Source: Sphyrna mokarran (lineage: Eukaryota). From it: a DNA stretch of 64,000 bases. Location of the stretch: assembly GCA_024679065.1 (NCBI GenBank), contig JAGIQG010000003.1:109492001-109556000 (forward strand), read 5' to 3'. The translations under genes were made by a program, and so were the position numbers. The notes under the pieces were generated by a model. It ran no database searches. It saw only the letters and a program-made list of their open reading frames with translations, and had not been told where the DNA came from. Below are positions 20,783 through 50,900 of the stretch, piece after piece. Position 1 is the stretch's first letter. Every line of letters begins with the position of its first letter.

Positions 20783-20970
20783 TTAAGGAACTGTAATACG
20801 GAATGGACTTCCAGGAATGTGTTCATCACCCCACTTTACAACCAGCGTATAGTTTCCCCTCTCCTTCACAACGTACGAAACATTATATTGCTCATTTCCA
20901 ACATGTTTCACAGATACCTCTTCACATGGAACTGTGGGTCCGTGAACACCAACCAGTAGTACATTAGAAC
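20783..20970 (-). CDS. FLNB: FLNB last coding exon (Ig24 dimerisation domain)
   Basis: [62 protein letters not shown]; TAA at 20785-20783. Confidence 0.96.
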
Positions 20971-23900: not shown

Positions 23901-26900
23901 CTATAGATGCAAAAACAACTTTTTTCTCAAATCAATTTTAATAATGCTTAGTGACCAATTTGTTTAAGTATAGTCAGCATATTTATCAACAGTTTCTGCT
24001 GCAGTGTCACTGAATAGGTACCAGATTATAACACTGAACTGCATTTATTGGACAGCCTGACAGATCATTTCAAGCAATGGAATATCAGCTGACTAACCAT
24101 TTCAAGTAGCATTGGAATTTTTAATCTAAATTTTAACAATGTGACCAGTATTCATTTTTGTCAATTCCTAGAAGGAACACAATAAATTTCTCCTAAAATA
24201 AATAGGTAAATATTCTTAGGTTTCCATATTCTTGATTCCATGGCATCTGCCAAATAATTTGATGTGATTAGCAGCATTCTCAAACTAAAATGTTTAGATT
24301 TATTCTCTTCCAGACCACTAAAGCTCTCCTTGTGCTCTTAAATATATGGGTTATAACTGACAAGCAAGTTATCACCAATATAACCTGATTAACCCAATCT
24401 GCATCAGGCTATTCCAAATCAATTTCAACCTGCCCACTTTTAATTTTAGTTTGGTCTACGCTGAAAATGGCAGCATATAGTGGTTAGCACTACTGCCTCA
24501 GCACCAGAGATCCTGGTTCAATTCTGGCCTCAGGTCACTGTCTGTGTGGAGTTTGCATCTTCTCCCCTTGTCTGTGAAGATTTCATCTGATGGCACGGGG
24601 TTTCCTCAAAGTCCAAAAGATATGCTGATTTAGGTGAATTGGCCATGCTAAAAATTGACCCTAGGTGTCAGGGGATTAGCAAGGTAGATATATGGAGTTA
24701 CAGGAATAGAGCAGACTCAATGGACCAAATGGCCTTTTCTGCATTGTAGGAATTTTATCATTTTCTATAATTGTAGATGTTCCTTAATTCAAAATAAGAA
24801 AATGCCACATTTGTCACCTGGTTTCAAAATTTCTGCAGCAATAGCCTATAAATATTTGTGGGCATGTGGTTACTCAAGACATTTGATCAACAATGAGAGA
24901 AGCAGTTAATTACTTGTCTTTGACTAATGTACAGTTATCTGTAATGCTTCATTAATGTTTTTAGCAACATTTTTGCAATACTGTTGCCAATGCTTCTGAA
25001 GAACGTCATTCTGCAACACTATTCAATTTAGTGCTGATGAAAGGTATCAATAGAACACTGCTTACAGCCATCACTGCTACAATAGTATAAAAAATGCAAA
25101 GCAAAGCTCCTTCTACATAAATTAACTGCATAATTAGAGGATCCTACACGCCAGAATGCTCTGTTGGGAAAGATACAAAAGTCTGAAGATGTGTAACAGA
25201 CTCAAGAACAGCTTCTCCCCTGAATGTACATGCCAGACTTTTGCATGTACCTATCTTGCATTAAGTTGATCTTATTCTACACATTAGCTGCGATTGTAAC
25301 ACTGCATTCTACACCCTCTCCTTTTCTCTATGAATGGTATGCTTTGTTTGTATAGCAAGAAATACTTTTCACTGTATACTAATACATGTGACAATAAATC
25401 AAATGCTAGGCTTTGAGAAATTTACATTACAGGTGATTCAAAATTAGCAGGTTGTACAATATCACGGATTATTACAGCTAAACAAAAATATTTGAATAAC
25501 TTTAGCAGAGTACAACATTCACCTTAAATTCTAAAAATGCCATTTTAAAGTTTTAATTTGTCTCCTAAACCACAGAATGACAAGCATCATAGTAATCTAT
25601 AATGTTCATAATGCAGCAAGCTATATCAGCAGGATATTCTATTTATCTAATTAGACCCATTTTAACAGGTGAAAAGATTTTAGTTTTTAGCCTGCAAACA
25701 AAAACTGTCTGATGTAGATTTGTGTCCAGCTGGTATACATTATATAGAAATAAAAATTACCTGTTACATTTGCCTTGAAAGGACTTCCCTGAATGTGATA
25801 TGGTCCTCCATATTTAATTCCAATTTGGTACTCTCCTGGTGCCATAGGAGTGTACAAGACCTTGTATCCTTCAGGGCAGTCACGACAGTCCATTTTTACT
25901 TTAGATGGCCCATCAATTGCAACACTCAGAGAGCCTGGGCTGGCATTAGCCGTTTTAACAATAAATTCAGATTGGACACCTGCAAATGAAACAAATTATA
26001 AATTCACTATGTATTACATCACATTTCAGTTGTGGCTCAGTTGGTAGCACTCTTGTTGCTGTGTCAGAAGGCTCTGGGTTTTAAGTCCCACTCCTGGAAG
26101 TGTTGCACTCGCAGAGATTGTCTTTCATGTAAGATGTTAAACTCAAGTTAAAAGTTCACTAGTTACAAGTAAGGCTTACATTTACACTGCAATGATGTTA
26201 CTGTGAAATTCCCTTAGTCACCACATTTAATACCTTTTCAAGTCAATGCACCTAACCAGTACATCTTTCAGACTGTGGGAGGAAACTAGAGTATCTGGAG
26301 AAAATCCATGCAGACATGGGGAGAATGTGCAAACTCCAGTGTGACCCAAGCTGGGAATCAAACTTGGGTCCCTGCACTGAAGTAGTAGTGCTAAACTGAG
26401 GCACCATCTGCCTGCTCTAGTGAATGTAAAGATAGCACTAACTCAAGGAGCAGGGGAGTTATCCTTAGTGTCCTGATCAATATTTAGTTCTCAATCAACA
26501 TCACTACAGACTTGGTCTTTATTACATTGTAGAACACAATATTGGTTGCCAGGTTCCCTGCTTTACAAATGGTGACAATGCTTACATCATTAGCTGTACA
26601 GCACTTCTACATGTCCCGTGATGTGCAAAAAGCACTACACTTTTAAAAATGTGGAAGCCAATAATCAACTCTCCACAAGTACCACTGTCACCAAATGTGA
26701 CACCCAAATGCAGTACAAGATAGTAAAGATGTCCAAATCACAAATATCTTCTTACCCCATTACAGCTACATTTAGAGAACCCTTGTGGGGAAAAAAATCA
26801 CTGGCATGAATCTTTTGCTCAGGATAACGTGTTACAGCTTCAAACCCTCGAGTCACCTTTAGCCCTTGTCAGCCTTAAGTGCATACTGGCTTGACAATCT

Positions 26901-29900
26901 GTTCAAACTAATTAATGTAGTAACAGGAGACACTGATTGCAACAGGAAAAAACAGCCATCTGCTATTTTCCCAGAGGAGGGATATGAGCACAAACTTCTT
27001 ATCTGAAAACCTAAGCTAACCACTGTGCAATTTAAACCAGTCACTAGACAAGTAATTCACAACAGAAAAATCTTTATTCTGAACTAAAGGCCACTCAAGT
27101 GTTCAGTTTGCATTATTTTGCCCAGAAAAGTTGATATAATCAAAATCTTACAACAATCTCAACTCACTTGCCCATTAAAATGATAAATTCACAAGCAGGA
27201 AACAGTTTAGTCTTTTTACAAACAACCAATTTTGTTGGTTTTTCCATGATGTTGTAGCCCTAGATTTATAATGAGTGATTCAACAATTAAGATCACTTTT
27301 TTAATAAGAAGCCATTCAAAAATGGTTATATGTCTGCTGTCAGAAAAGTAGCCTTTAAAATATACAAAGTGGCATTGTGTTGCTGTGAAGCTCTATTGTT
27401 CACTGCCATATCCATACTGTAACTCTTGTAAACAACCTACAATGCCTGCTGATTGAGCTGAACCACAATTCATTAGATAGGAAGTTTAACTGTCAATATA
27501 GTCATAGGAGTTGCAGCCTGTTTTAGAAGAGATAAGTCACAATGGGATAGAGCAAAGAAAGGTGTTGCATGCAATGTGCAAAATGCATTTGTTTTCACAG
27601 CAACAAATTGCTGGTTTGTTGGTTTTAAAAAAATATCACATTCAAAACACACTAACCAGCATTCAGATTTGCACACTCATTTACATGTACTTGGAGAGAA
27701 ATTGATATTCTTAATTTTGAAATTAGGATTATAGCTAACAGATGACTTTAAAATGTATTTTTGACAATGGTTTCATGGTCATCAGCAGGTTCTTAATTCC
27801 AGATTTTTAGGCATTTCACAAGGCATGTGCCAAGGTAGGATTCAAACCCAAATCCTCAGAACATTAACTTCTGGATTAATAGTCTAGTGATAATATCAAT
27901 AAACCATAACCTCCCTTTACTTAAGGCACAGACAGAAATGCAAGTAGAGTGAGTGGGATTTCCCCAGAATCTTAGATTATATTTAACTCAATACCATCAA
28001 ATCATGTTTCCCTGCATGATTCCAAAATGTAAAGTGATTTCAAAGTTCTGCAAGTACACATCTGTCAAACAGAATTCAGGATAAAGAACTCTGAGGTGGC
28101 TTAATTTGAATAAGATACCCTTAAATCCTTGGAAGGCAAGGAATCAAAGCAGGATAGAAGAGCAATCAATCTGGGAATACAAAATTCCTAAATCAAAGTA
28201 ATAAAGCCATAGTGCAAACCAAGTATGGTTAACACTGACTGGATCAGATCACAGCTCTGGAATGCATACTCAAAATATAAGTACAGAAAGAGACTGACAA
28301 TCATGTTGCATCAAGATATAACTCAGGGAAGACAGGACAAATTGGGGCTCTGGCTTCAATAGAAGTCTTTAAAATTATGGAGCCTTGATAGTTTCCTTTG
28401 CCTTCACTAGGTGAAAAAAATCCAGAACAAGTTTAAGACAGCCATCAACAGATTGAAGAAAGAATTCTGAAGTTTGTTAATATGGAGAGAGCAAGAATAT
28501 GGATTGCACTGCCTGTGATTAAGCAGACAGCATTGATGTACTTGAGATTTGAGGCAGTTGTGAATGTAAGGTAGAGAGATATAGGCTCAAGGCAGGCAGA
28601 GAATTTAGAAGTGGGCAGCAGGGACTTGAATGGAGTACAAATACTGGCATAGACCATTTGGGCTTCCTTAGCAATGTATTTGCATAAAAATGTATATTTC
28701 ATATTAAGGCTTGGAAAATAAAATGTAACAAATGGTATTTAATAACACATGGTAGGAGTGCTTTTAATGTTTATGCACCTGTCATTCCATACACAAGGAC
28801 CTTGAAAATTTGCAGGAAACAAAATACACTTCATGTCTAACAAACCAATGAAATCAAGAGATTGATGGAAGGGTACATTTGGAAGATACCCATCACAAAA
28901 AGCATTATTCTACTTTCACTCAAACATACAGGGGAATTCTTTAGAAGCTTAGAACTATGTTTCGTGAATGGCACAATCTGCAATTTATTGTCACCATAAC
29001 AGGTTAGATTAGATTTACTTGGAGTTAAGTGATCTAACTGAATTCTAACTTGCTGAGGACCACTAGAAACAGTAGAACCACAGAATTCTACAGTGCAAGT
29101 GGTGGCCATTTGGCCATCAAATCTACACCAACTACAATCCTATCCCCATAACCCTGTGTATTTGACCCTTAGGCACACTAGCTAGGATAATTTAGCATGG
29201 CCAAACTAACTTACACATCTTTGAGGTGTGGGAGAAAACAAGAGGAAACGCACACACAAGCGTGAGTACATGCAGAGTCTGTACGGAGTCACCAGAGGCT
29301 GGAATGGAATTTGGCTCCCTGATGCTGAGGCAGCAATGCTAACCACTGTGCCACTCAGTATTTCAGTAATTGATCCAGTAAAGGAAGATGATGTGTTGTG
29401 AAAAGGAGAATGTAAATTTCAAACTCACTGGAGAGACTGAGAATTTTAGATAGGCAATACACAACCTGTTACTGTTCAGACTAGCACATGGCATGGAAAA
29501 TATTCTCTTGACTAGCTGAAGCAGTTAACAATACTGCAAAGAAAAAGGTGCGGAATGCTACAGTACATACAAAGACTTTATACAAGTACTTTTTCTCTAA
29601 AGCAATGAGGGCACCCCTCTGATGGTGATCAAACAGGGAAGAATCAGTGTTAAGAACCTTTTCAGCTTTAGAAGGGAGCTACTTCTGAGAGAACTGAGCA
29701 CATCATAAACATCGCAGAGGCAAGTAATAATTAATGTTTACAATATTACTGGGTCAACATCTTATAATTTTCCCAAGTCACATCATTTTGTAGGAGAAAT
29801 TCATACTGAAAACTCTCAATTTACAGGAACTGGGGTAACAGCAGTTGGTTAAAGGATTCCATAAGGTTTGGAAACAGCCTGGTTAAAGGGAATTAAAGAC

Positions 29901-32900
29901 CTGCATTTTTCAGGTTTAAAAGGAGTTTGAAATAAAAAAAGGCCAAAGATAATAAATGGCCATAAGCCAGAACTGAATTGACAGTGTCTGAACCAATATA
30001 AAATGGGTGGCTGGTGTGAGAGAAGAGAGTCATTATGAATTCAATTGGAAATCAAATAGATAGATTTACATTTGCTTTAATTCAAGAGATTGATCAACGT
30101 GAAGGGAACTTTACTGCTCACTGTATTAATTAGTTTGTACATCAACATGTACAGACAAGATGACCATTGGCAATACATCCTGAACACCTATTTTCTTTGC
30201 ATCAAAATTTTATGGAACTGTGAAGGATAGGGAACACAGTTATCAGGTGCAAACATTCATAGTACTGCAGATAAGCAGTTTAATTTTAGAACTAAAAGGT
30301 TTGAGGGATATATTGAGAAATTATGGTTTGGATGGACATGTTCATTGCAAACAATAACATTTCTCTCCAAAAACAAATATTTACTGAATTTTATTGAGGG
30401 AATTAATTTTCAGTTTTGCTAAAATTAGATTAGAGGTTTAGATAGGGTGGACAGTGATAGCCTTTTTCCTAGGATGGAAAAAGCTAGCACGAGGGGACAC
30501 AGCTTTAAATTAAGGGGTGATAGTTATAGGACGGATATCAGAGGCAGGTTCTTTACCCAAAGGGTGGTTCGGGAGTGGAATGCCCTGCCTGCAGCAGTTG
30601 TAGATGCGCCAAGTTTGGTGGCGTTTAAGAGGTTAGTTGATAAGTATATGGAAGAGAAGGGAATGGTTTAGTTTGGAGGGGCATTGCTTTTTATATTGGT
30701 CGGCGCAACATCGAAGGCCGAAGGGCCTGTTCTGTGCTGTAGTGTTTTATGTTCTAAAAGCAACTTTTATTTTAAGAGAAACAGCAAGCATTCAATATTT
30801 GCTTGAAACATGTATAGCAGCATTACAGTTTGATGCAAGAAATGTTAATAATTCTCAGTCAAGCCCTTAGGACAAGGACTAGTAAACTGCTACCAGAAAA
30901 GCTTGGGCATTCTCCTGACAGATGAGAGCTGGAGACAGAAATGCTGGAACATCTTCTAATACAAGAAATATATAGGGAAACCTGCATGGCATACAAGTAG
31001 AAAGAAACATACCAGCAACTTACCTGTAGTTCCTTTTTCAAGGCCTAATCCATAAGCAGAAACAAGACTCGTGTCACCTGTGTGGCCAGGTTCCCCAACT
31101 CGTATCTTGAATGGGCTGCCAGTGATATGACTGCCATTGAATTTGACATCAATAGAATGGACACCATTCTCGTGAGGAATGAAGCGAATGGCATATTTGC
31201 CTGTAACAATGACCATAAAGGTTACACTTTCAGCAATGCACGACACCATTTCCACTCATTAGGTTATTTCTATAAAAAGCATGCACATACCTATGGAAAA
31301 AATCCTTACCTGGCTCAATTTCAGATATATGGGTATCCTCCACTGCCCCTGATGGACTGTGAACTTTGGCATCAATTAAACCCTTAGCACCATTCAGTCT
31401 CACAGCAAAGGATACTGGCTGATTTACTTTTAATCCCGACTCCTGAAGATTGAATAGCAAACACTTGATTGCACATTTAGATTCCACTGAAGCACAAGAA
31501 CAGGACTACACAAAGTTATGCCAGAAGGTATAAAGCTTGCTGTTGCTATAGAGTGCAGTCAATGTTTACCACACTGATCCTGAGATGCCAGGTTTGAGAT
31601 GATTGAAACGGTTAGGATTGTATTCATTGGAGTTTGGAAAAGTGCAGGGGAAATCTCAAACTTAAAATTCTAAAACATTAGCATAGATTTAGTAAAAACA
31701 TTCCTGATGGTGGGCAGTCCAGAACTAGGGATCATTGTTTGAGGATAATGGGTACATCTTTTGGGGCAGAAGTGAGGAGAAATTTCTTCACCCACAAGAT
31801 GGTGAATCTGTGCAATTCACCACAGAAAAATAGTTGAAACCAAAACAAATGTCTGATTTGAAGAATTAGATACATGTCTTGAGAATAAAGGGATCAGCAA
31901 GATCAGAGTATTCATTATCATGGTTGATCATATTCAACTGTGGAGCAGGCTCAAAGGGCAGAATGGCCTGTTCCTAATTTTCTACATATTTCATTGATGG
32001 CTGATCTATATTGGAATAAGATCCTACGGCTGCAAGTTAAAGGTCTAAAGCAGTTGCATTTCTTGTGTATTACTGCAGAAATTAGAGATAAAACATAAGC
32101 ATGTTAGGAGTGAAAAGGAAGGTGACCACCTAAAATAATCTAACATGTAAAAACATCTCTAGTTGTGCTTTTTATAACCAAAAGAAAAACCCTTAGTCTG
32201 CCCTGATAAAGATCATTTCCTCTAGGATCAAAGTTTAGCAGTTCAACTTGGCTGATAAAAAAATGAAGTCCAGACTTGAAATAAAAATGGAGCTTCTGTT
32301 TCCAAGCTTGCGTAGACTTGTGTTTAAAAAGAGGATGTCAATTTAGTCGATAAGCAAGCTGATTAAATCACATTCAGCACAAGGTCTTGTGCATGGATCA
32401 TAGAATCATCAGTAAGCCCGTCAATTTTAAGCAGGTGAAGATGGAAGCAGCCCAACTATATTGGTGCAATTCAGGCATTCAAGTAGCCACCATTGGGCCT
32501 ACCTCAGGAAAAAGGACCTAGGAAGCAAAGGACCCAGGTGGGCAGCAGCTCTCCATTGCATACAGCACCACCAGGAGCAGTGGCAGCTGCTGATAATGCA
32601 CCCACCAGAGGCCTAGGATCACCACAGAACAATAAGCCAAAAAGGTGTGTGAAGTAGAGTTGGGGCAAGTGGAAATGGAATGACTAAGAGGGAATGGCTC
32701 TAATTGCAAACCACCCTTTTACACCCCTTCCCCCCCAAATCCCCCTCAGTGCTAGATTCCTTGAATAGATTTGAAGTTCCAAACATCCTGGGAGGATGAG
32801 GACTGATCAGGGGAAGTTTCGCCATCACTTGGAAACTAATTCAGGACCGTTCCAGTGATTAAATAGGCCCAGCCGCCGTGGTTCCTGCTGTGACAGCCCA

Positions 32901-35900
32901 GATTAAATTCTACCCACTTTAGTCTTTAACAGATTCGCTGCAGGTAGTATTGTGCTGCACAGAATCCACCAGTAATAAACTGCGATTTGAAAGAGCTCAT
33001 GCAATGTCTGGGCATTTATAAGCTTAAAGAACAGCTACTGATTGCAAAATCTAGGCCAATCCACTTGCAACAAAATCTCAATACCAAAAACATCAGAATT
33101 CATATCCAACCTAGTCTGAGATTAAACCATGAATACAAAATTAAAAGATTTAATGAATTTCAACATTACCTGTTACCATTAATTTTTGCTAAAGACCTGA
33201 AGAGGGAGTTCCACCTTGTTTTCATCAAATACCAAACCATTACAAATACAACTTCGGCAACAAGCAGTTTAAGCCATTCACCAAACACTGCCATAATAGT
33301 AGTTCACTTTTAACCACCAATATCAACTGAAGATCAACATAAAGGCTGGACTCTTAAACCTCTTCAACCTTTAACTTGTGGAAACATGCATCTTGCAGGT
33401 ATGCTGTCACAAACCTTTAAATGAGACACAAGAAAAACATCCCAAATTTTTCAAGTGGCAGATGGTGAACTCCTTACACATGCAAAGGCCACACTGATAC
33501 TCATCTCCATTTTTTTTTTCATGCTGCAGAGCTTTGCAACTGATGTTCAATAGGTTAGAGCCAAGAAACCAAAGTTGGACCATGTAGCCCATGGAGAAAA
33601 AAGCACTATGGAGGAAGCATAAACTCAGACCATCTGTGTGACAAGTTGGAAACAGAGGTTCCACATGGTTTGCTGCCCTTCAGGCAAAGTTAAATGGAAG
33701 CAGACCATATCCTTCAATTGTGATTGCAAGTATAGCCAAGTTGCTAAACAAAGCTGATTAATTACGAAATTGCAGAATACTGGCACAATTAAGTTTGATT
33801 TTTTTTAAATGCCAATGGTACTTGGTTTAAATATCCAATTCCTGTCATTAACAACTTAATGACTTAGTTAGCTGTTTAATTCTTAAAGCATTACTTCCTT
33901 TAAATTTGCCCTCTTGGAACAGATTACAAATTTAATCTATTTTATCTTACAAAAGAATTCTCAACCTGTGGCATGTGAAATTTCAAGTGGTAAATTAAGA
34001 TCAAATTGGATAATTTGATCAGAAAGGACACAAGTATCACATTAGCTTAAATTTATATTTTTAAAACTGGTTGTTTAAATGGGAAAGCCATTTAAGTTTT
34101 TAAAAAGCTCTTATTTTCATTTTGTTTTTCCTGCATGATCTAGGGAGCAGCAACTAGCCACTATTAGTACCATCTCTTTGAGAGAGTTTTTTTTTAAAAA
34201 GAGGAAATGCACTTGATGTAGAAACCTCTGCAAACTTCACTTCATCCAAACGCTGCAGCCAAAGTATAACTACAACCCCAACCCAGAACTGGGATCGTGT
34301 GTATTAGAGGAGAATGGTTTATTCTGTTATGGAATTAAAAGGCCAAGATACATAGCACAACTGGATAAATGCAAGCAGCTGCTGAGAACGAGGGGGGTAA
34401 TTAATTCCTAACATTCACTTGCATCTGCATTCTTCTTCCTCTAAGATTTCCACATTCAAGTATCACATCTTTCTAGACAAAATATGGAACTATTTTAAAT
34501 AGAGACATTTGCAAGTGTGGCCTTTGAGTGTGCAGCAGGAAACCCAACCAGTGAGCCGATATTTTCTTATGTCTCACCTGAAGACTAGCAACAGTAAGTC
34601 TGCTTGCATCCTCTGATGAAGCCAAGATGGGAACAACAAAGGGACTGCCAGGGATGTACTCATCGTTGAACTTGATCGACACCTCATAATCACCTGCAAC
34701 AAAAACATATTTAGATCAATGCTCAGTTATAAACATGCAGAATCTACTAAACAACTAAATTTGAGATTTAGTGTTCAACATCAGTAAAACTGTTGCTGCC
34801 TTCCAGGCCACAAATGTATTGCAGATACATCAGTTTGAATAAACAAGATTTTCACATTAAATTATGGGGGGGTTTAACTAGATATTTTACAGATTCAAGT
34901 CTTGGGTGGATTTTAGCTGTCAGGTGTTAATGGAGAAGGGGTTTGTAGAGAGAATGAAATCTAGCTTTCTGAAGACTATTTTAGCAATTCAAGGTCTAGT
35001 GCTGGATTTTAGGCTATCAGAAATTCTTCTGGAAAACTTTGGCCTAAATTTCGTGCTCCTTGCTTGGTGATGGAGAAGGATTTACCCAAATTGGGGAAGC
35101 CAGGAAAAGAACAGACTTAGATCCCAGGTGGGAAGACAATACTTCCATCAGAAACTGCCTTCTGATTGCAGGTGTCCCCATACAACTTAAGGTTCAGTGG
35201 CTGCTGGACCTCCTTCCCCCACCCAGCTCTCCAGTGACATCCCAATTGCCCCTTAGACCTTCACTACCCTCCTCACCCTGGGACCTCTTAAAACTTCAGC
35301 ACTTTGGCTCAAGGTGGTAGCTCACCACCACCTTGATAGCAACTGAGATGCTTGAGCCTTTGTAATGCTGTTCTCACCAAGACCACTATCAAATTGAGGG
35401 GAGCTGTCCTTTGTACTATACACTGTCAGGATGTCTATATACTCACCAGGTTCTTGTGCCACGTATGACACACCACAGGATCCATCCTTCCGATCTTCAA
35501 ATGAAATCTCTGCCCTGCTGGGTCCTTCCACAGCAATAGAAAGGCCACCTGCACCAGCTTCCCGTGTCCAGATATTGAACTCAGCTAGAAGAGCAAACAT
35601 AAATTATAACCAATACTTAAATCCTCAGACAGGTGCCAACATAACTAACCTCTTTTTTGAAAAGCAGAATATTGCAACGTGTGAAAAGACTGACATCATA
35701 ACTTGAGGTCTTCATTTAACTTGTGAATACTTCACATCAAGTTTAGACAATTCCATTTTCCAATGCATCCTGAATATTTAGTTCAATGCCAACAATTCAC
35801 TTATTCATAACACGCAGAGACCCTTGTAGTTGGACGTTTTAAAATGTACAAATAGACTGATCTAAATTATAAAAACCCAATTTTATCTCCAGCTGAGTAG

Positions 35901-38900
35901 CAAATTATAAACTATTGATTTTCTCCAGAAGTTGGATTGTTTCATTTCAGTCATGAATGTCATTGAAATCTTGGTCACCAACTTTCTAAAGGGAAGGTCT
36001 ACACTAATGGGGATTGGAGCACTATCCTGACCCTGGCTTGATAGGTTGACTCCCCCCATCCCCAATTCCTTCACTGGGATATGCCACTAGGATAGCCACT
36101 GTGCCTTCCCTACTCAAGCCACCAGTTTAAAAAGTGCCAAACAGCAATAAAGATTTGATGTGCATTTGGGAAAAAGGACTCCTCACAGCTTTTGGACAGG
36201 TATCTGGACAGTGCAGTCAGGATACAAAGTTGGAAACACGTGTACCTAGCCGTTGCCTACCTTGGTTTTGGGCAAGGGTGACTTGCTTAAAAAACACCCT
36301 CCGTAGATGAGCAAGTAAACTGAATTTAATGTAATACCTAGGACTGTCAAGCATCAAATCTCACAGGAGAAGCAAATTGGCAAGATTACAAATTTACTTG
36401 CCCTGTTTCAAAAGTATTCCACATTAGGCATCTGTGGCATTGACATAATCTACACACACTGCAAAGTTAACTTGACCATAATCCTTCCCACAGAAATCAA
36501 GGAAACCCACAGGTGAAAAATGCATTTTCAATAACTTACCTGGGACTCCCACTTCGCCTCGCTCAAGGCCAGGGCCACCAGCTCGCACTTTGAGAGCTCC
36601 TCCTTCACCAAGAGGCCCCACAGTAAATTGGAAAGGACTGCCTGGTACATGCCGGTTCCGATACATTACGCTAACTGTATGCACACCCATCTCATCCGGC
36701 ACAAATCTGACACAGTATGTATGATTGTCACTTTCAGTGATCTCAGCATCAGCCAGTTTTCCAGAGGGACTGGTCACTTGAGCAGACATGTCACGGACAT
36801 CAATTTCTATAGGGGGACAGTCATTGTTAAGTTATATTCTATACTGGAGGCACCAAATTAACAAAAATAATAAAATCATGTTTAACTAAGTAGCCATATT
36901 TGCCTTGCACTGGAAAAGATTGGTTGTATTGGATTTCATGTTTACTAGCATTTAATGGTACGTTATACAGCTTAGTGTTTTTGGTACCAAGACAGACCCA
37001 TCAGTTACAAGGTTGGAAAGCTTTTTTTTGCTATTCCTTCTGACAGGTCAGAAGGCAGAGCTTGAGTTTAACTATAAGTGCTTAAACAGGATTTCAGATG
37101 GAAACTGAAAAGAAACAGCCATGTTTATAACTAAATCTTGAACTATCAGCCAAACTAAAACAAATTTTGATCAAAGCCTTATGTTGCTTGCTTACCACAA
37201 GGATTTTTATACAACAGACCAAATCATAGAATGTTTAATTAAAACAACTTCATCTTCAAATTAAAATTATTTAACAGTAAATAGATGGTAAACAATAAGA
37301 GGAAGTCAAATTAGTAGACAGGAATTCTACATTTTGACCATACTGAAATGTGTTGGTTTCAGGACTTTGATGCATTCTTTTCAATTTTACACCCCCCACC
37401 CCCACAAATGATCCGACCCATACTTGGTTAGCAGGAAAAGGGTCATTGAAACCCAGTGCCATCTCAGGATCCTGACTGGCACTTTTCCTTGAAGTTAAAA
37501 TGCATTATTTCCACTATTTACTTCAAAATTACTTTGCAAACTATTTGTCACCAAAAGGGCTTTATTTTTCTTCAAGTCTAACATTTATGTTTCTCTTGGG
37601 TACTCAACTCCTACCCCAGCTACTGCAATATCATAGTATAATGCAAAACGAGAAGGTGGCAGAATATTTTAGTACAGTACAATGTAGACACCCATTCCAT
37701 TTCCAGTTTGTACTTTCATGCTTAAGCTACAGTGAGCAAATCTGCAACATAATAATACAATACATTTGACTACTTTGGTTCTCTGTAGGACAGTAAGTGA
37801 TTTGCAAGTAGGACAGTCCTAACCAAATTTAAAAACTGTGCAAGGGAAGAAAATTCTTACTCATGCAACTACCATCGATAAAAGCATGCTGGCTAATTTA
37901 AAATAAGCACATTCTGCCGACCTCAGAGTCCACATGCCCAGTGCTGAAACGCACCATCCGGCCTTAATGGCCATGCACTGAACAATTTGTATTCCTCCTG
38001 GCCCAAGAGGCCAAACAGGGACGGGATAGGTCGACTTTGAACACTAGCAGGGTCCTTGGATTTTTCAAACCGATTCTGGCGGATCTCCATTTGTTCTGCA
38101 CGCAAGAAAGTGCAACTTGTCTGAAAATCTGAATGTGTGCAACAGAGGCGTTCCCGAGCCACCGTTAGTTGGAACCAAGTCACTGAGTGGAATAGGAAAG
38201 AAAAAAAAAGGAAAGAGAGACAGGAAACAGTTGTATTCTAGAAGAAAAATTGAGGTAGACATCTGCACTTCAGTTTTCTACATCTTCATGCATTTCAACA
38301 AATTCACTGGTCTACATCTTATTACACATTTAAGAAAAATCAAAATAACACCCCCCCTCCCTTTTCTCACCCAAGACTTCACATGATTGGAATTTAGATT
38401 TGACTTTAGCCCAGAATAGTCCATGGTGCTATGGGAACTGAATTTACACAGCCCACATGGAATGCTATCTTCGAGGGGGTGGTGAAGTGGTACATCACTT
38501 TGCATGCAAATCTCTCAAAAGCAATGCCACATGAATGCAATGAAGATCAACAATCACATTGTTCACTGAATAAATTGCCAAATAGCTAACAAAACTAGTG
38601 GGGTCAGCAGCAACTTGATGTTTTCATGATAGGCATTTGCTCTCACCACCTTTGTCATTTGCTCAAATTTGGCAGCGTTTTAGTGACTGGAAAGATCCCA
38701 ATTTTTTAAAAAGCAAAATAGTCTAATATTACAAATCACTAAATGTGATTTATGGTATCACAGCACACAAGCTATAAAAATTTTCAAATTTGACTAATTT
38801 TAGTGGTAGGTGACAACTAACTTCCCCATCTATTTTTAACAATGGCTGAAATCATTATGTAAACATCTGTAATCATGTCAAGTTTTTTTAAAAAACTGAA

Positions 38901-41900
38901 ATGACAAATTGTTTTCCCAAGATTAGTGGAAAAGGAAAAATAGCCTGGATAGTATTCAGAGTCACAGAAAAAGAATGCTACAACAGCACATTCCTCAAAA
39001 CTGTAAACATGAACTAATTCCTCACATCATTTGTGCTCGAGATTTCAATGAGCTGTATTCAGAAATAAACAACTTCTGTTTATTTCATTTAACCTATTAG
39101 CCATAGGCTGGACTGAGTTATTGGAACTAGCGTTGGAGGATTAAAATACCATTGCACTGCACTTTTTAAAGTTTCTCTTTGTGAAAAAATTCAGCTGCAC
39201 AAATTGGGCGAGATGATTTGCCATCAGCCATCACTGCATTTACAATTCAGCCAACATTTAAAGTGAAGCAATGACTAACAGCCAACTCCGTTAAACATTC
39301 TTTACTTCTGACATTTTTCAAATGCCGAGCCGGCTCAATTACACAATCCAAATACTTTGAGAACAGACTCCAACAAATGTTTGGAATTCCTTTTTCAATC
39401 TTACCAGGAATCTTTAAGTTCAAATCACAGATGCTTCCAACGGTGGCTTCAGATGCAGCCTGTCTTCTGCGAGTGATGCTCTCTCTCATTCGTCCTTCAC
39501 CTGTTACTTTCACAGTGAATGGGCTCCCTGAAAATGTTTACGCAGTTAAAGGATATAAGACTCTGCGGTATAATAAGTTCCAATTGCTCATACACAGAAC
39601 TGTTTTGCTAAATTCTTGTAAATTAGCAGTGATTTTTAAAAGAATATTTTGCACAATGTTCATTTGGACCAAATGTCAGAATCTTTAACGAGAATATCTA
39701 GAGTGAAAGTGGCCATTCAGCCCATTGAATTGGCACCAATTCTGCCAAAAAGCATCTCAGCTAGCTACCCACCACCATTCCTACAACCCAAAAGATTTAT
39801 CATGGTTAATCTCCTAATCTATGCATCTCATGACACTAAGCAGCAGTTTAACACAGCCAATCCACCTAATCTGCACATCTTTGGACTGTGGGAGGAAACC
39901 CAAGCAGACATGGGGAGAATGGTGTGGAGTTTGCACAAAGACTGGGATTGAACCCAGGTTCTTGGTGCTGTGAGGCCATCCATAAATAATGCATTAAATA
40001 ATCTCAATTTACCAAAGGACAAATTGGCTTAATCAAAATTGGTTTCAAATACAAGTGCTCCAAATATTGTATACTTTGGTTCAATTGCTGAAATCAAGGA
40101 ATATTTCAACCTTAGTTATAATAAATAGGATTCCTCAAGTATTTGATCAAAGAACTAAATTCAGATCATAACCACAAGGGACCCTTGCCCAATATGCTAC
40201 ATTCAAAAGGCACCAGAACAATGACAAACCAGGCCAATTTCTGCATTAATTCTCAGAGCATGAGAATGTAGGTGCTACAGGAAATGAGTGCCAGAGATAA
40301 TACTTGTAAATAGAATATTTTACAAATAATAATAATGGTGGTTTTTCCTCTTTAAAAATTTAGAGGTAATAATGCAAAAGCAATTAGCTAGACATGATCT
40401 CAAAAGTTCGACAAGCTGCATACCATTATAGCAGGTTTACGTGACAAACGGCAAATAAATCACCAAAGCCAGCAGAATATGTCACAAACTTTATCTACTC
40501 ATGTACTGTATCAATTCAGAACAAAAGCAGTGATATTGAAACACCATACTGGATCAAACAGAAAAGATATGCTTGGTGGTTAAAGTGTGAATAAGAATTC
40601 AAATAGAAAATGACAGTATTTGTCATTGACTATACAGACTTTTTAATGCAGCCAATGTCTATTACTACAAACTAAACAGTCAAGTCTGGTTCATCAACAG
40701 ACCAAATTCAATTATTTCATTAGATACCTAGGAACCCAATTTGAACACAAGAACTGACTTTACTAGGGATTTTCAGCCCTGTTTATTAGCATGGATCCCT
40801 TTCTGCTGCAAAAGATGTAGCACTGTCAAATTATTGCATTACATTTTTGTTGCAATAAAGGAACTGTTTTCAGGAGTAAGGCTATACATCTATTACGTCT
40901 GGAAGTGATGGAGAAGATAAAAATGAAAGCATAATTTTGTGCAACTTTTCATACCTGGTACATGTTCATCAGCAAATTTGATATAAATAATGTAAGTGCC
41001 TGGCTCAGTTGGACAGTAGAAAACCTTGCAGGCACCATCCACAGTCTCTTCTGTATTAATATCCACCTTACTTGGACCTTCAATAGATAGTGCAAGACCA
41101 CCATAACCTGAAACATTTAAAGGCAATTACAAATCACATTTTGTTTAAAAAATTTCAAGATGTGCATTTTACTAACATGTTGCAGCCAATAGAATAATGT
41201 AACAAACTGTTCAGAGTGGACGTAGACATTCCATTAAGCCTACAAATTTGTGGGTAAAATCACAATCTCTATAGGGTAGGAAGAGACAGGTTAGCCTATT
41301 GAGTCTGCACCAATGCTCCAACACAGCATCTGACTCCTCCTGTAACTCTATATTTACCCTGCTAATCCTCCCAACCTATACATTCTGCAATCTTAACATG
41401 GCCAAACTGCCTAACCTACAAATCTTTGGACTTGGAACACTGAACAAAACTCATGCAGACAATTTTTTCCCACCTCTATCTATCCATCTCTGCTCAGGAG
41501 AGACGGATTAAGTGTTGTTCTTATGGAAAGTAGCTACATGTTTAAGGCTACATATATTGTACCATCACTTACTAATTGGTGTATAAACACTTGCCAGTTC
41601 AAGACAGTTAGTTCACTCCATGGAACACAAATTATGACTTGCCTGCTCCACACCACAGTTGAGACAATGGCCATTGAAGGCAATGGGAGCAGACAGAAGA
41701 GCAATAGTTAGATTCTCCAGCCAATCACATCCTGCTGCCAGCAAGGACAGAATTTGGCAGTCAGCCAAACCTCTGTTGACTGCAGTGGGATGAGAAGCCT
41801 GGTAGCGTGAACAGCTGGAGTCTGTTTTCCTGACTTGAGTCAGCAGTTGGGCAAGATTTGAATGGCCTGTTTCATTACTGCAAGGTTGTACAATTTTTTC

Positions 41901-44900
41901 TCAATTGGAGAACTGCTTATCAGGTGTCCTCAGAAGCACTGGCTTGCAAATGCTTCTTACCTGCATCCCTTGTGTCCACAATGAAGTCAGACATTTCAAA
42001 TGTACGTCCTGCTGTCAAACCTTCACCAGAGACCTTAACTCTGTTGGCATCTCCAATTTCAGACTGGCCAACCATAATGGCAATCGGGCTATTTGCCACA
42101 TGTCTTCCATTTTTCTTTATGCTGACAAGATGTTCACCCACTTCCCGTGGGATAAAGGAGATACCTATTGATCAAAAGATATCACACCTTTCAGCAGATC
42201 ATAATTCAGAAAACTCCCTCTCCATCACTCCAATCCTAAATAGTTTTGTGCATACATCTCATTTCCCTGTTAGATATACTTATGCAGCCAGCAGTCTCTA
42301 CAATCTACAACTTCCTTCTTAAAATGCCTCTATTAGTTCCTTCTTTGCCTCAAAGCCTATTTTGAGCCTCTTACATTTGAAGAAAACATCCTTACAATAC
42401 TGAAATAAAAGTAATTCACAAATGTTTCAAATACACAGCTCAAGTTTGAATTTTACATCACAATTGAGATATTAGATTCAGCATTCTTTTGCTAAAAACA
42501 AAGATTTGGCACAGAAATCAAAAGATTTTATTCCATCAGTCATGGTGTATTTCAATTTACAACTCAATTAAAAACAAAATTGACTACATTGCACAAGTAT
42601 TTTTGAAATGTTTATCTTGAGGCACAGAATGTAATTTCAGGCACTTACCAATATGGTTGTTTGGCAGTCTCTTCAGCAGGCATGGCTCATCTTGGCCAGA
42701 TGGAGATTTAATGCTGGCAGATAGCAAACTAAGGTCACTTTCATTGATGTCCAAAGAGATGTCAGCAGATGAACCAACCTTAACTTGTGATCTTCGTCTG
42801 CTATCATCTGAAAAACAGCCAAATGAACTTAGTTCAGAAATTTATAATTAAGAAAAAGATTTTTCTTATGTTAAGATTCTTTAGCTGAAAAGCTTTAGAA
42901 CAAAAGTGCATCATAATGAAGCTGATATTCTGTAAAAATAAAATGCATTAGGTCCAGTGTTTATAAACAGATGAATTTACCATTTTGCCAAAAACCCTGT
43001 TCTGTCTCAATTTTAAGAATTTCTAAACAGAGACAGCAGTATAACAATTTTAATTGATTCAAAGGTTTTGCATTATTGTAGTTTTGCCCCAATAACACAC
43101 CTTTTGAAGAACAGAATCAAGCAAAAACAACTTGGATTTCACATTAGTGAAGTCGTTACAGTGGATTGAATGCTGACAGTCTCACCCTTATTAGTCTGGA
43201 TTTTGTAGTGCTATCACATAAGTGTGACTATATTAAAACATTACCACTTCCTTAGCGATACACCTCATGCACACCTCAAACTAAATATACTTCAGTTGCT
43301 TGACAATCACTTCCCAATACAATATAAACTAGTTTATTGCAGGACCAAAACTTGTTCCACTTTATGCTTTTGTTTAGAAAATAGCTATTACACCAATAAA
43401 GCAACAAAAATCAGTACAATTATGAACTTCAGCCTTAAACTTCCAAACTTGGTACAACTGTGCCAGGATAAAATGGAACACAAATCTGTTAAGTTATTTT
43501 TGAGGAGATGTAGATAACATGTTCAAGATAGCACATCTGATCTGGAGACAAATTAGACAAGAGGCTAAAAAAGGTGGGTAGGCATGGTGTCAATACTGCA
43601 GCTTCAACAGTGACCTGGGTTCAATTCCCAGCTTGGGTGACTGTACAGAGTTGCACATTGTGTCTGCATGGGTTTCACCCACAGTCCAAAAGATGTGCAG
43701 GTTAGGTGAATTGGCCAAGCTAAATTGCTCCCTGGGGAGACTAGATAGTAAATACATAGGATTATGGAGAAAAGGCCTGGGTAAGATTGCAGTCAGTTCA
43801 GCCTCAATGGGCTGAATGACCACCTCCCGTACTGTAGGATACTATGATGTGTTATTAATTAGTATTGTTACAGCAATTTTTTGAAGAGTGTAAATAAATA
43901 TTTGCCCAGCTTGACAAACGTATTACAGGATTTCATGGTGAATGTGGTCCAACATTAACCCTCTAATATAGCAAGTTCACTATCCAGTACTTCACTCAGC
44001 AGCACGCACAAGCTGAGGACAGCACAGCAACATTGTCAGAATCCAAACAAAGGGATTCAGACACTTGTGGTGAGACAGAAGTAGTTGTCATAAAAAGAGG
44101 AAATTTACCAGCATTTGTAAGTCAGAGAAAGGTGGGGAGGGAAAAAAAAAATGACAGATGGATCACCAATTAAGGAAAGGTCAATAAGTTGCTAAAAAGT
44201 AAATAAACAAAGGATGTGGGAAAACTTGGAATTCCATGTCTGAAAAAGGTATAGAGACACCACACAAAAAGTATTTGTATGTTTGTTTATGTGGGGAACT
44301 ATGGCCTGCATGACAGTATCAGAAGGTGGGATTAGAATGGAGTGTTTTTGGTCAACTGGCACAGACACAATGAGCCAAATGGCCTCATTAAATGAAGTCA
44401 GTTGACCTCATACTATAATTCCTACTCGTTTAAGTGACTAAATAAGGTGAACAAACAAGATAGCTACTTTGCAGTAGTCATTAAGTTAGGAATTGTCTGA
44501 TTGTAACTAAGTTTCATAAACTCTAGCATTTGAACATGGAGAGTCTAAACAATTAGCTAGAACCAAAATTTGTTATCCCAATTAAATCATAACTGCAATT
44601 TTACTAGTTCAGAATTCCCAGCTACACTAATTTTCCCAATTTCAGTTCTCTTGTATAACTAAAGTTTCAAAGCATTTTTGTTATGCTACACAATTAGTGT
44701 TAGTACTAGACTAGGTTCATATTAAAGATCAAGTCCATTTCACAATTAGAAATCATATATAGGTTTAACCTACTGAAACTTAGAACAATACAGCACAGAA
44801 CAGGCCCTTCGGCCTTCGATGTTGTGCCGACCAAAATAAAAAGCAATGCCCCTCCTAACTAAACCATTCCCTTCTCATCCATATACTTATCAACTAACCT

Positions 44901-47900
44901 CTTAAACGCCACCAAACTTGGCGCATCTACAACAGCTGCAGGCAGGGCATTCCACTCCCTAATCACTCTTTGAGTAAAGAACCTACCTCTGATATCCGTC
45001 CTATAACTCATACCCCTTAATTTAAAGTTGTGTCCCCTCGTGCTAGCTTTTTCCATCCTAGGAAAAAGGCTATCACTGTCCACCCTATCCAAACCTCTAA
45101 TTATCTTATATGATAATTAATGATGATTATCTAATTATCTTATTCTCAATTTCATAGTAGATAATTTATTACCTGTAATTTTGGCAGTGAAAGGGCTTCC
45201 AGGAATATGTTTTTCATTGTATTTGACAACAATACTGTAATCACCTGGCAGGGTTGGCAGGTAAGAGACTGTACAAGTGCCATTCTTGTTATCTGTGCAA
45301 TTGATTTCTGCCTTAGAAGGTCCCTCAATGGCTAAGTCCAGACCTCCTATGTAGTGAGGAAGGAGACAAGACAAAAATTTCACTTTAGAACATTTGGACC
45401 AATCTTATACAGTAATCGTGAAGGAAGAAAATCTTCCTTCATATTAGAGGACACATTACCAAAATGGATTATACTAGATAGAATTTGAAAAATCAGGTGA
45501 TAGCTCATGTTACTTCCAAATTGCTGTTAGAACAATTATTGGAGCAAAATTGGTAACTTTTAACAACTGTTAAGGTTGCATGTTACAACCAGTTGAACAC
45601 CAGTCAGCAAACTGTTCTTGGATCAAAGACCTATTAGTGGTTTCATAGCTGACTCAAAACAGCATGCACATGTATCCTATAATGTTCTGCAAAATAAAAA
45701 AAGGCACTACAGAGTATTCATAGTTTGACGCTTACCTTCTCCAGCATCTTCAGTTACAATTGTAAAAGTAGCTAGTTTGTTGACAACGCCATAGACAAGG
45801 CCTGGACCGTATGCTGACACATGTCCACTACTTCCATAATTCACAAAGAACTGTAGTGGACTCTCTGAAAGTAAATCAAATACATGGATTTAATTCTGCT
45901 CAAGGTAATTCCAAAGATGTTGAAGAATGACATCTAAAGGCAAGATATAGTATGGTTGAATGCAGTGAACTAAATAAGCATAGCTTAGAATCTCCTGCAC
46001 CAGTCTGAATTCAAATGTATTTAGCTTGGTAGTTATTGGTTGATCTTAAATACAGTATTTTTACTCAGGTTTGACAACATTGGACAAATGGAAGTTAATC
46101 TATCAACTACATTGCCAAGTCCTCAATCTCTACTCTTATTTCAGGATAGATTAGATAAGGTCAAAACTCAAAACACCCAAAGTCATAGAGACAACTTCTG
46201 CCTCATCTGACCTTAAATTTGGAACTTTTATTCTTGGATGTGTTAAATATTACATTAGTTCAAGATTTCTATGCTATTGAGATTCGTATTACATGCAAAA
46301 TGTATGCCAAAAAGTGTATGCCAGACAGGCCTAAAAAAAATGAATACCTGGAATATGTCTGCCATTGTACTTGATGTGCATCTCATGTAGCCCAACCTCA
46401 GTCGGCGCATATTTGACAGTCACGGTACCATCTTTATTATCAATAATTTCTGGCTTAGCAGTTTTTTTGGAAGGCATGTGAACTTCACCTACATTATATA
46501 CAAGTCAAATACAAGATAGTTGCAAAATGCAGGTTAAATAATTCTGAATATTAAACTATTAACTTTTCAAAAATGCAACATGAAAAAAATCAACTTCCAA
46601 AATGCATCATTTGTGAAAACAATCTAGGTAACAAGGCAGCAATAAGTATAACCAGTTGTAAGCAAAAATTCAGAAGCTAATGAGCTTTACCCCCACCACG
46701 CCCCCCTCCCCATAACCATGTCACAAATACTGCAATCCTAGCTCCTCTTAATTACCAAAGTACTGTGTACAATGGTTATTGCATCCTCTACAACCTTAAC
46801 ATTTCATCCTGCATCATGGCCAACTATTGGATCATAGGGATCAAGCTGCCAAAATATTATTTCACATCAAGTTATTCAAAAAAGTTCTCAACTTGAACAA
46901 TTAGGTGTCAGGTTTGCCTTTTCACATTACAGGAATAAACCTGGCAGTAAGCAGATGGCTTTCATTCTGGCTATTTTGGGTAGGTTTCAAACAAAGTAAT
47001 TGAGAACATATTATAGTTGGGGCATCTGCAAAGTTCTCTCAATTGGAAAACTATATCATTGCTCTATTTAAAGGGGAACAATTAGTCTGAAATCTGACAC
47101 TGACAGACTGGAGTCTGTAATTAAGGATACAGATGACCAAATATCTTAATTCCAACCATGAGAGCACTAGAATAGATTCTTAAAGCTTGGGTGGCACTAA
47201 ACAAATGGGATTGAATGTCTGAAATGGCTACTAATTAGTGATGCAGAGATGCTAGCATTGGACTGGGATGAGTATCTTAAGAAATCTCAATACCAGGTTG
47301 AAGTCCAAATGGACTATCTTGGTTTTCATGTTGCTGCATTTGCTGTAGAGCTGGCCTATCAGGTGGTTGATGAGCATGAGGGGGTCTGATGGCAAAGTCT
47401 CAGCACAGTCTGTGTTATAGGTTGTCAGGTGTTGAGACTTACTGTACCAGTTAGCAAACAGGGGAATGTTGATGGATGCCACTGATATGGACATCCAGAA
47501 TGCATATGACTGAAGTTCTCCATAAGAGGCTGTTGGCCAAAGATTAAGTTTGGAATTGGAGGCAAATTACTGACCCTGTTAGAAAATTGAGCCTAGTGGA
47601 AGGGGATAAGTGTAAAGAAAATGGGAAGAAAGCAAATGGTGATTCAAGTACTGGGGTATTAATTATTCACTAATTAATAATTTGGCTTAGTTGATGACAG
47701 ATTGCATAAGTTTATTGTTTTCTATTATCTCTTCTAATGTTTCATTTAAGAAGTGGACAAAACTTTGGATTTCAATATTGCTAAAAAGACATTCTTGCAC
47801 TTATAAAGACAATCCCTGCCAATGTCAGGGAAAACAACTTTACACTATGGGAAAGGTTCACTGATTGATTGGCAAATGGATGATTGGTAGAGGTGTCATT

Positions 47901-50900
47901 ATGGGAGAATGCACCAGTTGACAGTAACTGAGTTAGGCTACAAGGCTTGGTTTGAAATTTGAACCAGGCAGCGAGACTCTGGTCAAGGCATGAACCAGTG
48001 AATGACTCAGCTAAAACTGATAGCGTGGGTATATTTTGTCAAAGACCAAAGTTCTGCACATTAATACACTTGGCATCCAGCATGTGCAAATCATTGAGTC
48101 CATCTATTGTAAATTTTTAAGCACACTTCAGGATTATCTTGCAAATGTTGTCTGGTGCACATTCATATCTAATGTTGGACATAGTTTTGCATTTTGTTTG
48201 CATATGGTCTGAACTTGGCCAGTTGCAAACAGGGACATGGGGCCCTGTTTTACCATTTTGACTCTAAGTGCTGGGTGCACTTGAAACAGTGTTTCAGATC
48301 CAATTTTTAGTTATGGGGGTTCTCAGGCACCCCATTACACACTGCCTGTAAAAATATCAGCAATTCCGAATCATGCAACAAGCCTGTGGTCGGGACTTAA
48401 CACACCCAAAATCAGATCAGCACTTCCAACTGCACTTATGCAGGGAAAAAAATGCTATAACGCAGCATCCTTCCCACATTGCTCCCAGGCTGGATATGCC
48501 TTCCTCTAGCACCCTTCCACAGCAGATTCCCTTCTCTCTCTACTCCACTTCACCTCCCAGACTGACCACAGACCCCTTTTGATATCTTGTCCTCCACTCA
48601 GCACTTACTCCTCACTAACAAGTATCTAAACTGGACGTGGAGCTGTTTGTTTCACATCAATTCTGGATAGGTGAGCAGTGATAAAGGGGGAAGTGTCAGT
48701 AAAGTTGGGCGTGCAGTTTATTAAGCCAATTTAAATGCATGCAAATGGTTGTCATGCCCAATCATGACCATTTTTGGGCCTTGATAAAGGAGGAACCAGC
48801 ATGGAAGCAGGCATGGACTACATTAAGCACCTCACGCTTAACTACCAATTTTTCGTGCCCAACAGGCACAACTTAATGGTAAAATCAGGTCCATATAGTA
48901 TTTGATAAGATCCAACAATCTTTGCAACGTGCAGCCAACATACCAAGCATTACATTAGCACTGATTTATGTACCATATTGCTTGAGCAATGAACAGAATT
49001 GCTGAAATTGTGGTGTTACAATGGCAGGATCTTGCATCCTGCCAACAGTACACCCCTGCCACAGGTTTCCCAATAGGAAACCTGACAATAGCAGGACTAT
49101 AAGAACACTTGGCCAGAGAGCAGCACACTGTCTTCCACCACAGTGAAACACACTGGGGGGCACAGCTGAATTACAGGAGTTAGACAACCAAATTGGATTT
49201 CTGAATTACTTAAACTTGGCAAGCATAAAAAGCTATAACCAGCAGATGGAAAAAAGGTAAACAGTGCCTGAAGGATCAATGACAGGCACAGAATCAGATA
49301 GCACTCAAGTCAGTCTTTAAAAACCTAGCTCTGCTCAAATTTAAGTATTACTCCAATCTTAAGAGGCAAAATTGGTGCCCTAGTAAATACATTTTCAAAG
49401 AAACTTGTAGAGGGGGGGACAATTTGGGTGGTTGCAACAGTCCAAGAACAAATTTTTGAATACAGAATTTTGCACTACAAAGACCTCTAGCAACCTTATT
49501 TTCCATCCATGATGGCAAATTTTACCTGTGATTTCCCCTGTCCTGAGAGCAAAAGGAATGACGATATCAAAAGGTTTCAAACCCAAGCCATCTATTCCAT
49601 CAACTGGTGTGTAGGCACCGTCAAGAACCTTAGAAACAGGATGAGAAATCATTTGAAACCTACATTGCTCTTGAGACTTTGACTTGGCAAAAAAATGCTA
49701 GTTTGCCATTGTTGCCCATGTGACATGGAACAAAAATTGGTTCACAAAAATTAAGAGTTTACTATGCAATCTTAAAGAAAAAAGCCATTTCATGTCAGTT
49801 TCTGAAATAGAAGGTAACATTGTGTTCAATGGAATGGATGGATTCCCAGGTATCAATGCGAGGTATTCATTCAATGCGAAAAATCTCCCACCAGTTGTTT
49901 GAATTGCAATTAAATCTGAAACACCAAGAGCTAGAAAAAGGCCTCCAAATGGCAGTACATGAGCAGGGCTATCTTCACTGCTCTAGAGGCTCAGCTCCAA
50001 CTGGACTAAGTTAGCTGTAACCAAGAGGTTTTAAATAGTTAATCAGTTATTTACAGACAATATTAAATTTCAACTGCAGTGTGCAACAGAAGAGAAAAAC
50101 AGGAACTTAAGATGTCAATCCATTTAGAGAAGGTGGTTCTCGGCTTGTGCCTGCAAAGAACAGTAGAGCAGCAAAATAGAAAGTAAAAGGATCAAAGTGC
50201 AATCTCAATTAACAAGCAGTGCTGCACCCATTTGTTGGGTTTGAGGGAGGTTATTAAATTTTGTAATTATTAACATTACAAACAATTCAGTTTTGCATCC
50301 TCAAAGTAACCAAATTCAGATTCACAGACACCATGGGGAGATAGGCATTCCCTCAATATTGAAAGGAAAGACAGCAATTAAAAATGAGCATTTCAAATTT
50401 ATATTTTTTTCATGACAAATGATTAGATTCTGCATGAGTGTCAAAGCAGGCAGAGCAAGTGTAGCTGCAAGTTTAATTTTACATAAACGGGGAAAGTTAA
50501 CCTTTATGGGCTCGTTTTGGTGATAACTGAATGACTATTTAAAGAAATTCAAATTAACACTGACATTATTGATTGGGTTACACTCTTCAGAAGTGGCAAT
50601 AAAGCTCAGGTAGATAAAACAATAAAGGTGGTAATATGTATACCAACTTCATTTTCTGTAATCTCCACAACAAATCAAAAGCACAATGCTTGTAATGTTT
50701 CAGGTTACAAGCTTAATTAAGGATCATAGCTTCAAATGTCTGATCACAAGCTATTCATTTTATAGTTTTGCAGATAGCAGCATTAAAATTACTAGCACTA
50801 GGTTAAGGCAGCTGGCAAAAATCCCAAAAGCTGACATTTACAAAACCTTCAAGCAGCCTGGTGGTCAATCCTATCAACTGCTAAACTGTTAATGACAATA

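Follow-up and report, generated by a model that had tools for sequence, protein, structure and literature searches.

Evidence for a cassette exon in shark filamin B related to the Ig20 insertion of filamin C

Introduction

Is the insertion that sets filamin C (FLNC) apart from the other vertebrate filamins also present in a filamin B (FLNB) gene? This insertion, of 82 residues in Ig repeat 20 (Ig20, also d20), is the usual explanation for the presence of filamin C at the Z-disc. In the available text of reviews on mammals, it is called unique or specific to FLNC, and FLNA and FLNB are said to lack it (PMC7216277, PMC11550807). The accessible parts of the same and related articles describe it as sufficient for Z-disc targeting (PMC11550807, PMC7244511), as a hotspot region for cardiomyopathy variants (PMC7216277), and as possibly disordered (PMC6530996). 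Knowledge of its structure and of its key residues is scant, and the FLNC inserts are too alike to reveal which residues are important. A preliminary description of a 64-kb stretch of shark DNA, the whole of which is referred to here as the window, proposed that an FLNB gene carries a homologous exon of 228 nt. We report here the analysis of this segment, its relationship to the FLNC insertion, its distribution in other species, and the explanations that may account for it.

Results

Identity of the gene. The Ig20 exon of the gene in the window had three matches at an E value of <=1e-10 in the 2.77-Gb genome. We took approximately 60 kb of sequence surrounding each of the two remaining matches and built exon-match protein models for all three genes. 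The alignment used for the phylogenetic trees comprised 1,495 columns and left out the insert and hinge 1, i.e., it represented the constitutive exons; clade labels are the names given by the sources, and the Megalops row was labelled B from its cluster. The gene in the window fell inside the FLNB clade both in the FastTree analysis (36 of 36 rows; support, 1.0) and in an IQ-TREE quick search with 16 of the same rows (support, 100). The assignment to FLNB in the preliminary description is thus upheld, and the possibility that the gene is FLNC is ruled out by this placement. Of the remaining two genes, C335 groups with FLNA and C760 with FLNC, which means that the genome contains FLNA and FLNC as genes of their own; a filamin-A-like protein of Mustelus shares 97% identity with one paralogue.

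Position and splice signals of the exon. The features of the locus are compiled in Table 1. The coordinates, the length of 228 nt, the CAG acceptor, the G|GTGCGT donor, phase 1-1, and the peptide were all found as first given. Both joins, namely, inclusion of the segment and the skip that connects the 39405 exon to the 36806 exon, translate without a stop. The pyrimidine tract is the richest among the 27 exon acceptors of the gene, the next value being 0.82. We scanned the minus strand of the 64-kb window for stop-free phase-1 segments of 150 to 300 nt that follow a tract with a pyrimidine fraction of 0.8 or more and have a donor-like end. Three candidates were returned, one of them an already known filamin exon (45346-45173) and the other two being the cassette with its donor at 37955 or at 37979. 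A chance pseudo-exon is ruled out by this small number of candidates together with a match to FLNC that exceeds all shuffles (see below). We consider it very probable that 38182-37955 is a real exon that is sometimes included. Judged by length and position, the 41-codon exon upstream corresponds to the variant-1 segment of human FLNB, which comprises the end of Ig19 and strands A and B of Ig20. According to the available text of the study on human FLNB variants, the FLNC insertion is exactly juxtaposed to this variant-1 region (PMC2199218).

Table 1. Coordinates of the features discussed (window positions unless a contig is given)
Feature	Position	Strand	Remarks
Cassette exon	37955..38182	-	228 nt, phase 1-1; 76 additional codons within Ig repeat 20 of FLNB; homologous to the insertion exon of FLNC
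Acceptor region of the cassette (polypyrimidine tract plus CAG)	38183..38222	-	Pyrimidine fraction 0.91
Cassette donor GTGCGT	37949..37954	-	U1 consensus matched at 6/9 positions
Second candidate donor of the cassette, in frame	after 37979	-	
Three GCATG (RBFOX-type) motifs	37862..37937; starts 37937, 37889, 37866	-	At most 150 nt below the donor
Upstream exon	39405..39527	-	123 nt, 41 codons; ends DLNLKIP
Downstream exon	36540..36806	-	Encodes the remainder of Ig20 and the beginning of Ig21; matches Pfam Filamin (E, 4e-16) and filamins in PDB; skip junction 36806-39405 in run X8
FLNB gene, 3' part	20786..63999	-	Guide residues 1051-2608; approximately 27 exons including the cassette
Shark FLNC insertion exon	C760:32457301-32457540		240 nt, phase 1-1; same intron as the FLNB cassette

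Junction evidence. Among 24 sequence runs listed for related organisms, 20 contain the cassette or part of it, and four were examined in detail. These runs carry no tissue label, and their RNA nature is certain only where a splice junction shows it. Alternative splicing of the segment, as proposed in the preliminary description, is supported by two observations. (i) The skip joint 36806-39405, with GT..AG ends, was present in run X8 (organism E) at a depth of 90.7. (ii) In run X3 (organism C), a 156-nt contig with a depth of 3.5, a value not comparable to depths in other runs, covers 38052-38183 with four differences, and then runs on, in frame, into 24 loose nucleotides, 22 of which agree with the end of the upstream exon (20 for FLNC and 19 for FLNA). 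This contig is an inclusion junction at the acceptor, seen once and at low depth. Contigs of runs X1 and X2 (two of the four runs examined, from two studies) end exactly at 37955 with no loose end, which is a weak hint of donor use; the joint 37955-36806 is absent from the junctions listed in the four runs examined. The X1 contig retains 106 nt of the upstream intron, yet it ends at the donor. Run X8 also contains a 1,968-nt unspliced contig (36778-38617) that runs through the cassette and both flanking introns at a depth of 13.9, compared to 90.7 for the skip junction of that run, and that may correspond to intron retention, pre-mRNA, or DNA.

Relationship to the FLNC insert of the same genome. 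Homology to the FLNC insertion, the central claim of the preliminary description, was borne out by several lines of evidence. (i) The alignment of the cassette peptide with the shark FLNC insert had a local score of 79, which none of 5,000 shuffles attained (maximum, 48). Among the 2,838 six-frame windows of the 64 kb, the cassette ranked first against this insert, the next unrelated window scoring 37, and a tblastn search with the FLNC insert within the window matched the cassette with an E value of 4.9e-7. (ii) A hidden Markov model (HMM) of six FLNC inserts scored the cassette at 20.6 bits (0 of 1,821 scored shuffles as high). (iii) As in FLNC, the cassette forms a phase 1-1 exon of its own, immediately following the exon that ends in strand B of Ig20; the intron is the same in both genes, and the lengths are similar (228 nt in FLNB versus 240 nt in FLNC). 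(iv) The blocks WFQ...ERL, E..EI...R, and P...FG.LG are common to both, and the W and F are invariant in 13 of 13 inserts. The identity between the two shark inserts is 32 to 34% (32% over 77 columns), and when genome-wide searches were seeded with one insert, the other was not recovered in either direction. Since the two exons share the same intron and the same phase, the homology is persuasive despite this weak match.

The cassette differs from the FLNC insertion in that it sits in FLNB, where it is skipped in the highest-depth junction seen, and in that it evolves fast, being 34% identical to its FLNC counterpart, whereas the shark FLNC insert shares 77 to 85% identity with the inserts of fish and bird FLNC. 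It contains 12 Ser/Thr residues versus 18 in FLNC, as well as three Cys residues, and the Ser/Thr-rich middle part of the FLNC insert is not kept. RxRxxS is the Akt/PKC motif of mammalian FLNC, described as conserved among mammals in the available parts of two articles (PMC7244511, PMC11550807). The preliminary description had pointed out that this phosphosite is missing from the FLNB cassette, and indeed no RxRxxS is present there; however, its absence is not a peculiarity of FLNB, since the shark FLNC insert is also devoid of the motif. For the same reason, RxRxxS does not define the insert outside mammals. Over its first 55 residues, the shark FLNC insert hardly differs from the inserts of bird and teleost FLNC, yet the mammalian motif is missing. 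Many FLNC-type models of birds (P0009, P0010, P0011, and others) skip the insert and others include it; the models that skip it may reflect annotation errors or alternative splicing within FLNC.

Searches for a remnant in the shark FLNA intron of 884 nt gave no match (best score, 1.3 bits). This intron contains a fragment that we take to be derived from a LINE.

Inserts in other species. The preliminary description had regarded the exon as a trait of cartilaginous-fish FLNB. This restriction does not hold: FLNB gene models of nine teleost species carry a faster-evolving version of the insert, which rules out a shark-only trait. In a search with the FLNB region of a silverside, 7 of 18 candidates passed, all with an insert at the site, and six of these inserts begin with VSWF. 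The RefSeq models of Embiotoca FLNB comprise isoforms X1 (2,608 aa) and X2 (2,580 aa, no hinge 1) without the insert and isoform X3 (2,692 aa) with 84 additional residues; isoform X3 of Brachyistius likewise has the insert. An HMM of 13 inserts matched 21 of 141 proteins, namely, 12 FLNB-type models of the nine teleost species and nine FLNC-type models, 11 of these 21 matches being members of the HMM and hence matched by construction. For six of the nine teleost species, the genes were placed in the FLNB clade. The teleost long isoforms (XP_069025647.1 and XP_069568714.1; UniRef A0A8C4EKZ8) resemble the shark cassette in that 67 to 89 residues are inserted at the same site, mostly with a V[ST]WF start, and in that isoforms of one gene differ in whether they contain the insert. 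They differ from it in that they are only 19 to 29% identical to the shark cassette and carry no FLNC label; they are taken from automated protein models.

An HMM of six teleost inserts scored the shark FLNB cassette at 10.9 bits (0 of 1,968 scored shuffles as high) and the shark FLNC insert at 7.8 bits (0 of 1,978). Single teleost inserts reached only 0.6 to 7.2 bits with the FLNC HMM, and the hhalign probability was 12%. Because the teleost inserts match FLNC weakly when taken alone, the shark cassette is the link that ties them to FLNC.

The insert is absent from the FLNB models of frog, Megalops, and Albula, which are protein models that could skip a cassette. It is also absent from the FLNA models and from the invertebrate models that span the site, including Ciona; these are again protein models, the shark FLNA intron alone having been checked as DNA. 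A frog FLNB isoform is 74 residues longer than its partner, from which it differs at two other sites. A search with the cassette peptide against proteins of 133 to 2,000 residues, a range exceeded by full-length shark FLNB, gave 23 candidates, none of which passed. HMMER over 1.84 billion representatives returned a single match, a repeat protein of 4,022 residues unrelated to filamin, which was rejected. In Pfam and PDB, nothing was found for the cassette peptide apart from two chance matches to nucleoproteins (E, 0.2 to 0.4).

In the titles and the beginnings of abstracts of the searchable literature, we found no report of an insert in fish or shark FLNB. Automated teleost models contain the FLNB insert without labelling it, and it has apparently not been discussed in that literature. 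The available text on the human FLNB variants var-1, delta-H1, var-2, and var-3 shows that FLNB is respliced at the Ig19-20 boundary and in muscle and that var-1 removes 41 residues just upstream of the cassette site (PMC2199218). Unlike the cassette, these variants are deletions or truncations, and none of those described in that text adds an FLNC-type insert (PMC2199218).

Discussion

Proposed explanation. We propose that the insertion exon was already present in the single vertebrate filamin gene before duplication. It would have stayed almost unchanged in FLNC and disappeared from FLNA, and sharks and many teleosts would retain it in FLNB as a cassette under regulation, with skipping as the usual outcome. 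RBFOX activity, most likely in striated muscle and possibly in neurons, would promote inclusion via the GCATG motifs below the donor. The predicted product is an FLNB protein with a mostly unstructured loop of 76 residues just after strand B of Ig20, within the mechanosensing Ig18-21 region. The conserved N-terminal WF..V...ERL block and the P...FG.LG block may act as docking sites that shift this isoform to partners at the Z-disc or myofibril, and the isoform would be without the mammalian Akt/PKC switch. Taken as a whole, from the ancestral insert to the docking loop, we consider this explanation reasonably probable; its parts deserve different degrees of confidence and are discussed in the following.

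Is the exon maintained? We compared the window with the sequence of organism E. The cassette contains at least 12 differences, of which four are synonymous and eight are nonsynonymous (in seven codons), including one change from Trp to Arg. Among the differences listed, there is no stop or indel within the cassette, and the resulting pN/pS ratio is approximately 0.55. Protein constraint on the cassette looks weak, and the sites are too few to show purifying selection. The exon may thus be a decaying relic, i.e., an ancestral exon that is included at noise level and encodes a drifting peptide, the frames staying open because in-frame inclusion is harmless. The pN/pS ratio and the loss of a Trp fit this explanation, as do the inclusion depth of 3.5 in run X3, the FLNB models of frog, Megalops, and Albula that lack the insert, and a divergence of the cassette (at least 12 differences in 228 nt) that is not far below that of the nearby intron (at least 43 in approximately 405 nt at 38799-39203). 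However, an exon with an open frame, a matching phase, and the same initial WF is found both in the shark and in the models of nine teleost species, which drift would hardly preserve over the age of jawed vertebrates, and the exon has the strongest pyrimidine tract of the gene and a cluster of GCATG motifs. On balance, we regard decay as rather unlikely.

Regulation and function of the product. The number of GCATG motifs below the cassette donor is the highest among 26 approximate exon ends (0 to 2 at the others; Poisson P, 6e-4), for a window of 150 nt that was chosen after the motifs were seen. GCAUG is described as the RBFOX element in the available text of PMC11874969. None of the three motifs is touched by the differences listed for organism E. 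RBFOX sites downstream of an exon promote its inclusion in muscle, heart, and neurons. Judged from these motifs, the GCATG trio would favour inclusion of the cassette in muscle or neural tissue, and we lean slightly towards a bias for muscle. As to the product, an AlphaFold model of the cassette peptide alone (mean pLDDT, 57.6; pTM, 0.23) contains a helix at residues 2 to 16 only, and the predicted complex of the cassette with Ig21 of frog FLNB scored 0.02, a value that speaks neither for nor against contact.

At 34% identity to FLNC and 19 to 29% to the teleost inserts, the FLNB cassette may not have kept the ligands of FLNC, such as myotilin, Xin, or FILIP1, and it appears doubtful, if possible, that it still confers Z-disc targeting. 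The loop might alternatively have been repurposed: it would be functional but would not serve Z-disc targeting, being included in smooth muscle or neurons or having a cis effect on the autoinhibited Ig20-Ig21 pair, which it would loosen or compete with, thereby changing the access of integrin-type ligands. RBFOX proteins also act in neurons, and the Ser/Thr-rich middle part of the FLNC insert has not been retained. Furthermore, the cassette adjoins the variant-1 segment, the removal of which alters integrin binding in human FLNB, as stated in the available text of PMC2199218. Against this, the blocks that have been retained are those in common with FLNC, with their invariant W and F, and the low-confidence AlphaFold model shows the N-terminal block as a helix and not as a ligand-like strand. 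We consider such a change of function quite unlikely and return to the proposed docking loop as the preferred reading.

Age of the insert. The preliminary description had inferred that the insertion is older than the split of FLNB and FLNC, and the tree of the vertebrate filamins supports this view. FLNA and FLNB are sisters with a support of 100, giving the topology ((A,B),C), and a clade of FLNB and FLNC is rejected with a p-AU value of 1.2e-6. The root was set by long, distant outgroups, and the support for the vertebrate clade is 81; this root is likely, not certain. Because FLNB is the sister of FLNA and not of FLNC, the insert would date to before the first filamin duplication and would have been lost from FLNA. 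It probably predates all three vertebrate filamins, and among the parts of our explanation, ancestral origin followed by loss in FLNA is one that we hold likely. A transfer, with the exon born in FLNC, copied to FLNB through exon shuffling or gene conversion shortly after the genes had duplicated, and never present in FLNA, would require the same number of steps (gain and transfer instead of gain and loss) and agrees with the lack of a trace in the shark FLNA intron and of an insert in the invertebrate and Ciona models, but we judge it very unlikely, as exon loss is the commoner event, the copy would have had to arrive in exactly the homologous intron in the same phase, and a remnant in FLNA could have been erased, given the LINE fragment in its intron.

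Implications. Under the proposed ancestral origin, the insert is redated to before the first filamin duplication, and the FLNB cassette is a case of splice isoforms divided among duplicated genes. Carrying this further, we tentatively suggest that the ancestral vertebrate filamin may have toggled between muscle and nonmuscle forms by splicing the insert and that genome duplication divided these forms between FLNC, with the insert, and FLNA, without it. FLNB of sharks and many bony fish might then keep the switch and make a Z-disc filamin that partly replaces FLNC. If this were true, FLNC disease models made in fish would possess a hidden substitute for FLNC that mammals do not have, which raises the question of whether fish FLNB buffers the loss of FLNC. 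For work on FLNC itself, a paralogous copy with 34% identity narrows the candidate important residues to a few blocks, and the FLNB insert offers a natural swap experiment.

Other observations on the locus. In the region below FLNB (1-20700), 105 of the 137 ORFs of at least 50 aa were scanned, and none reached the Pfam cutoff; the sub-threshold matches include one reverse transcriptase at 6364-6570 (E, 0.0085), and the region is rich in repeats that are common to the paralogue loci. At 35447-35460 (minus strand), an FLNB exon ends in the Gln codon that undergoes A-to-I editing in FLNA and FLNB of mammals; folds of the end of this exon together with the intron (341 and 591 nt) contained no long duplex over the codon. 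The hinge-1 exon of FLNB (51570-51659, minus strand) has 90 nt, encodes a short glutamine run, and is followed by a weak donor (4/9). The exon equivalent to hinge 1 is skipped in isoform X2 of Embiotoca and retained in the insert-bearing isoform X3.
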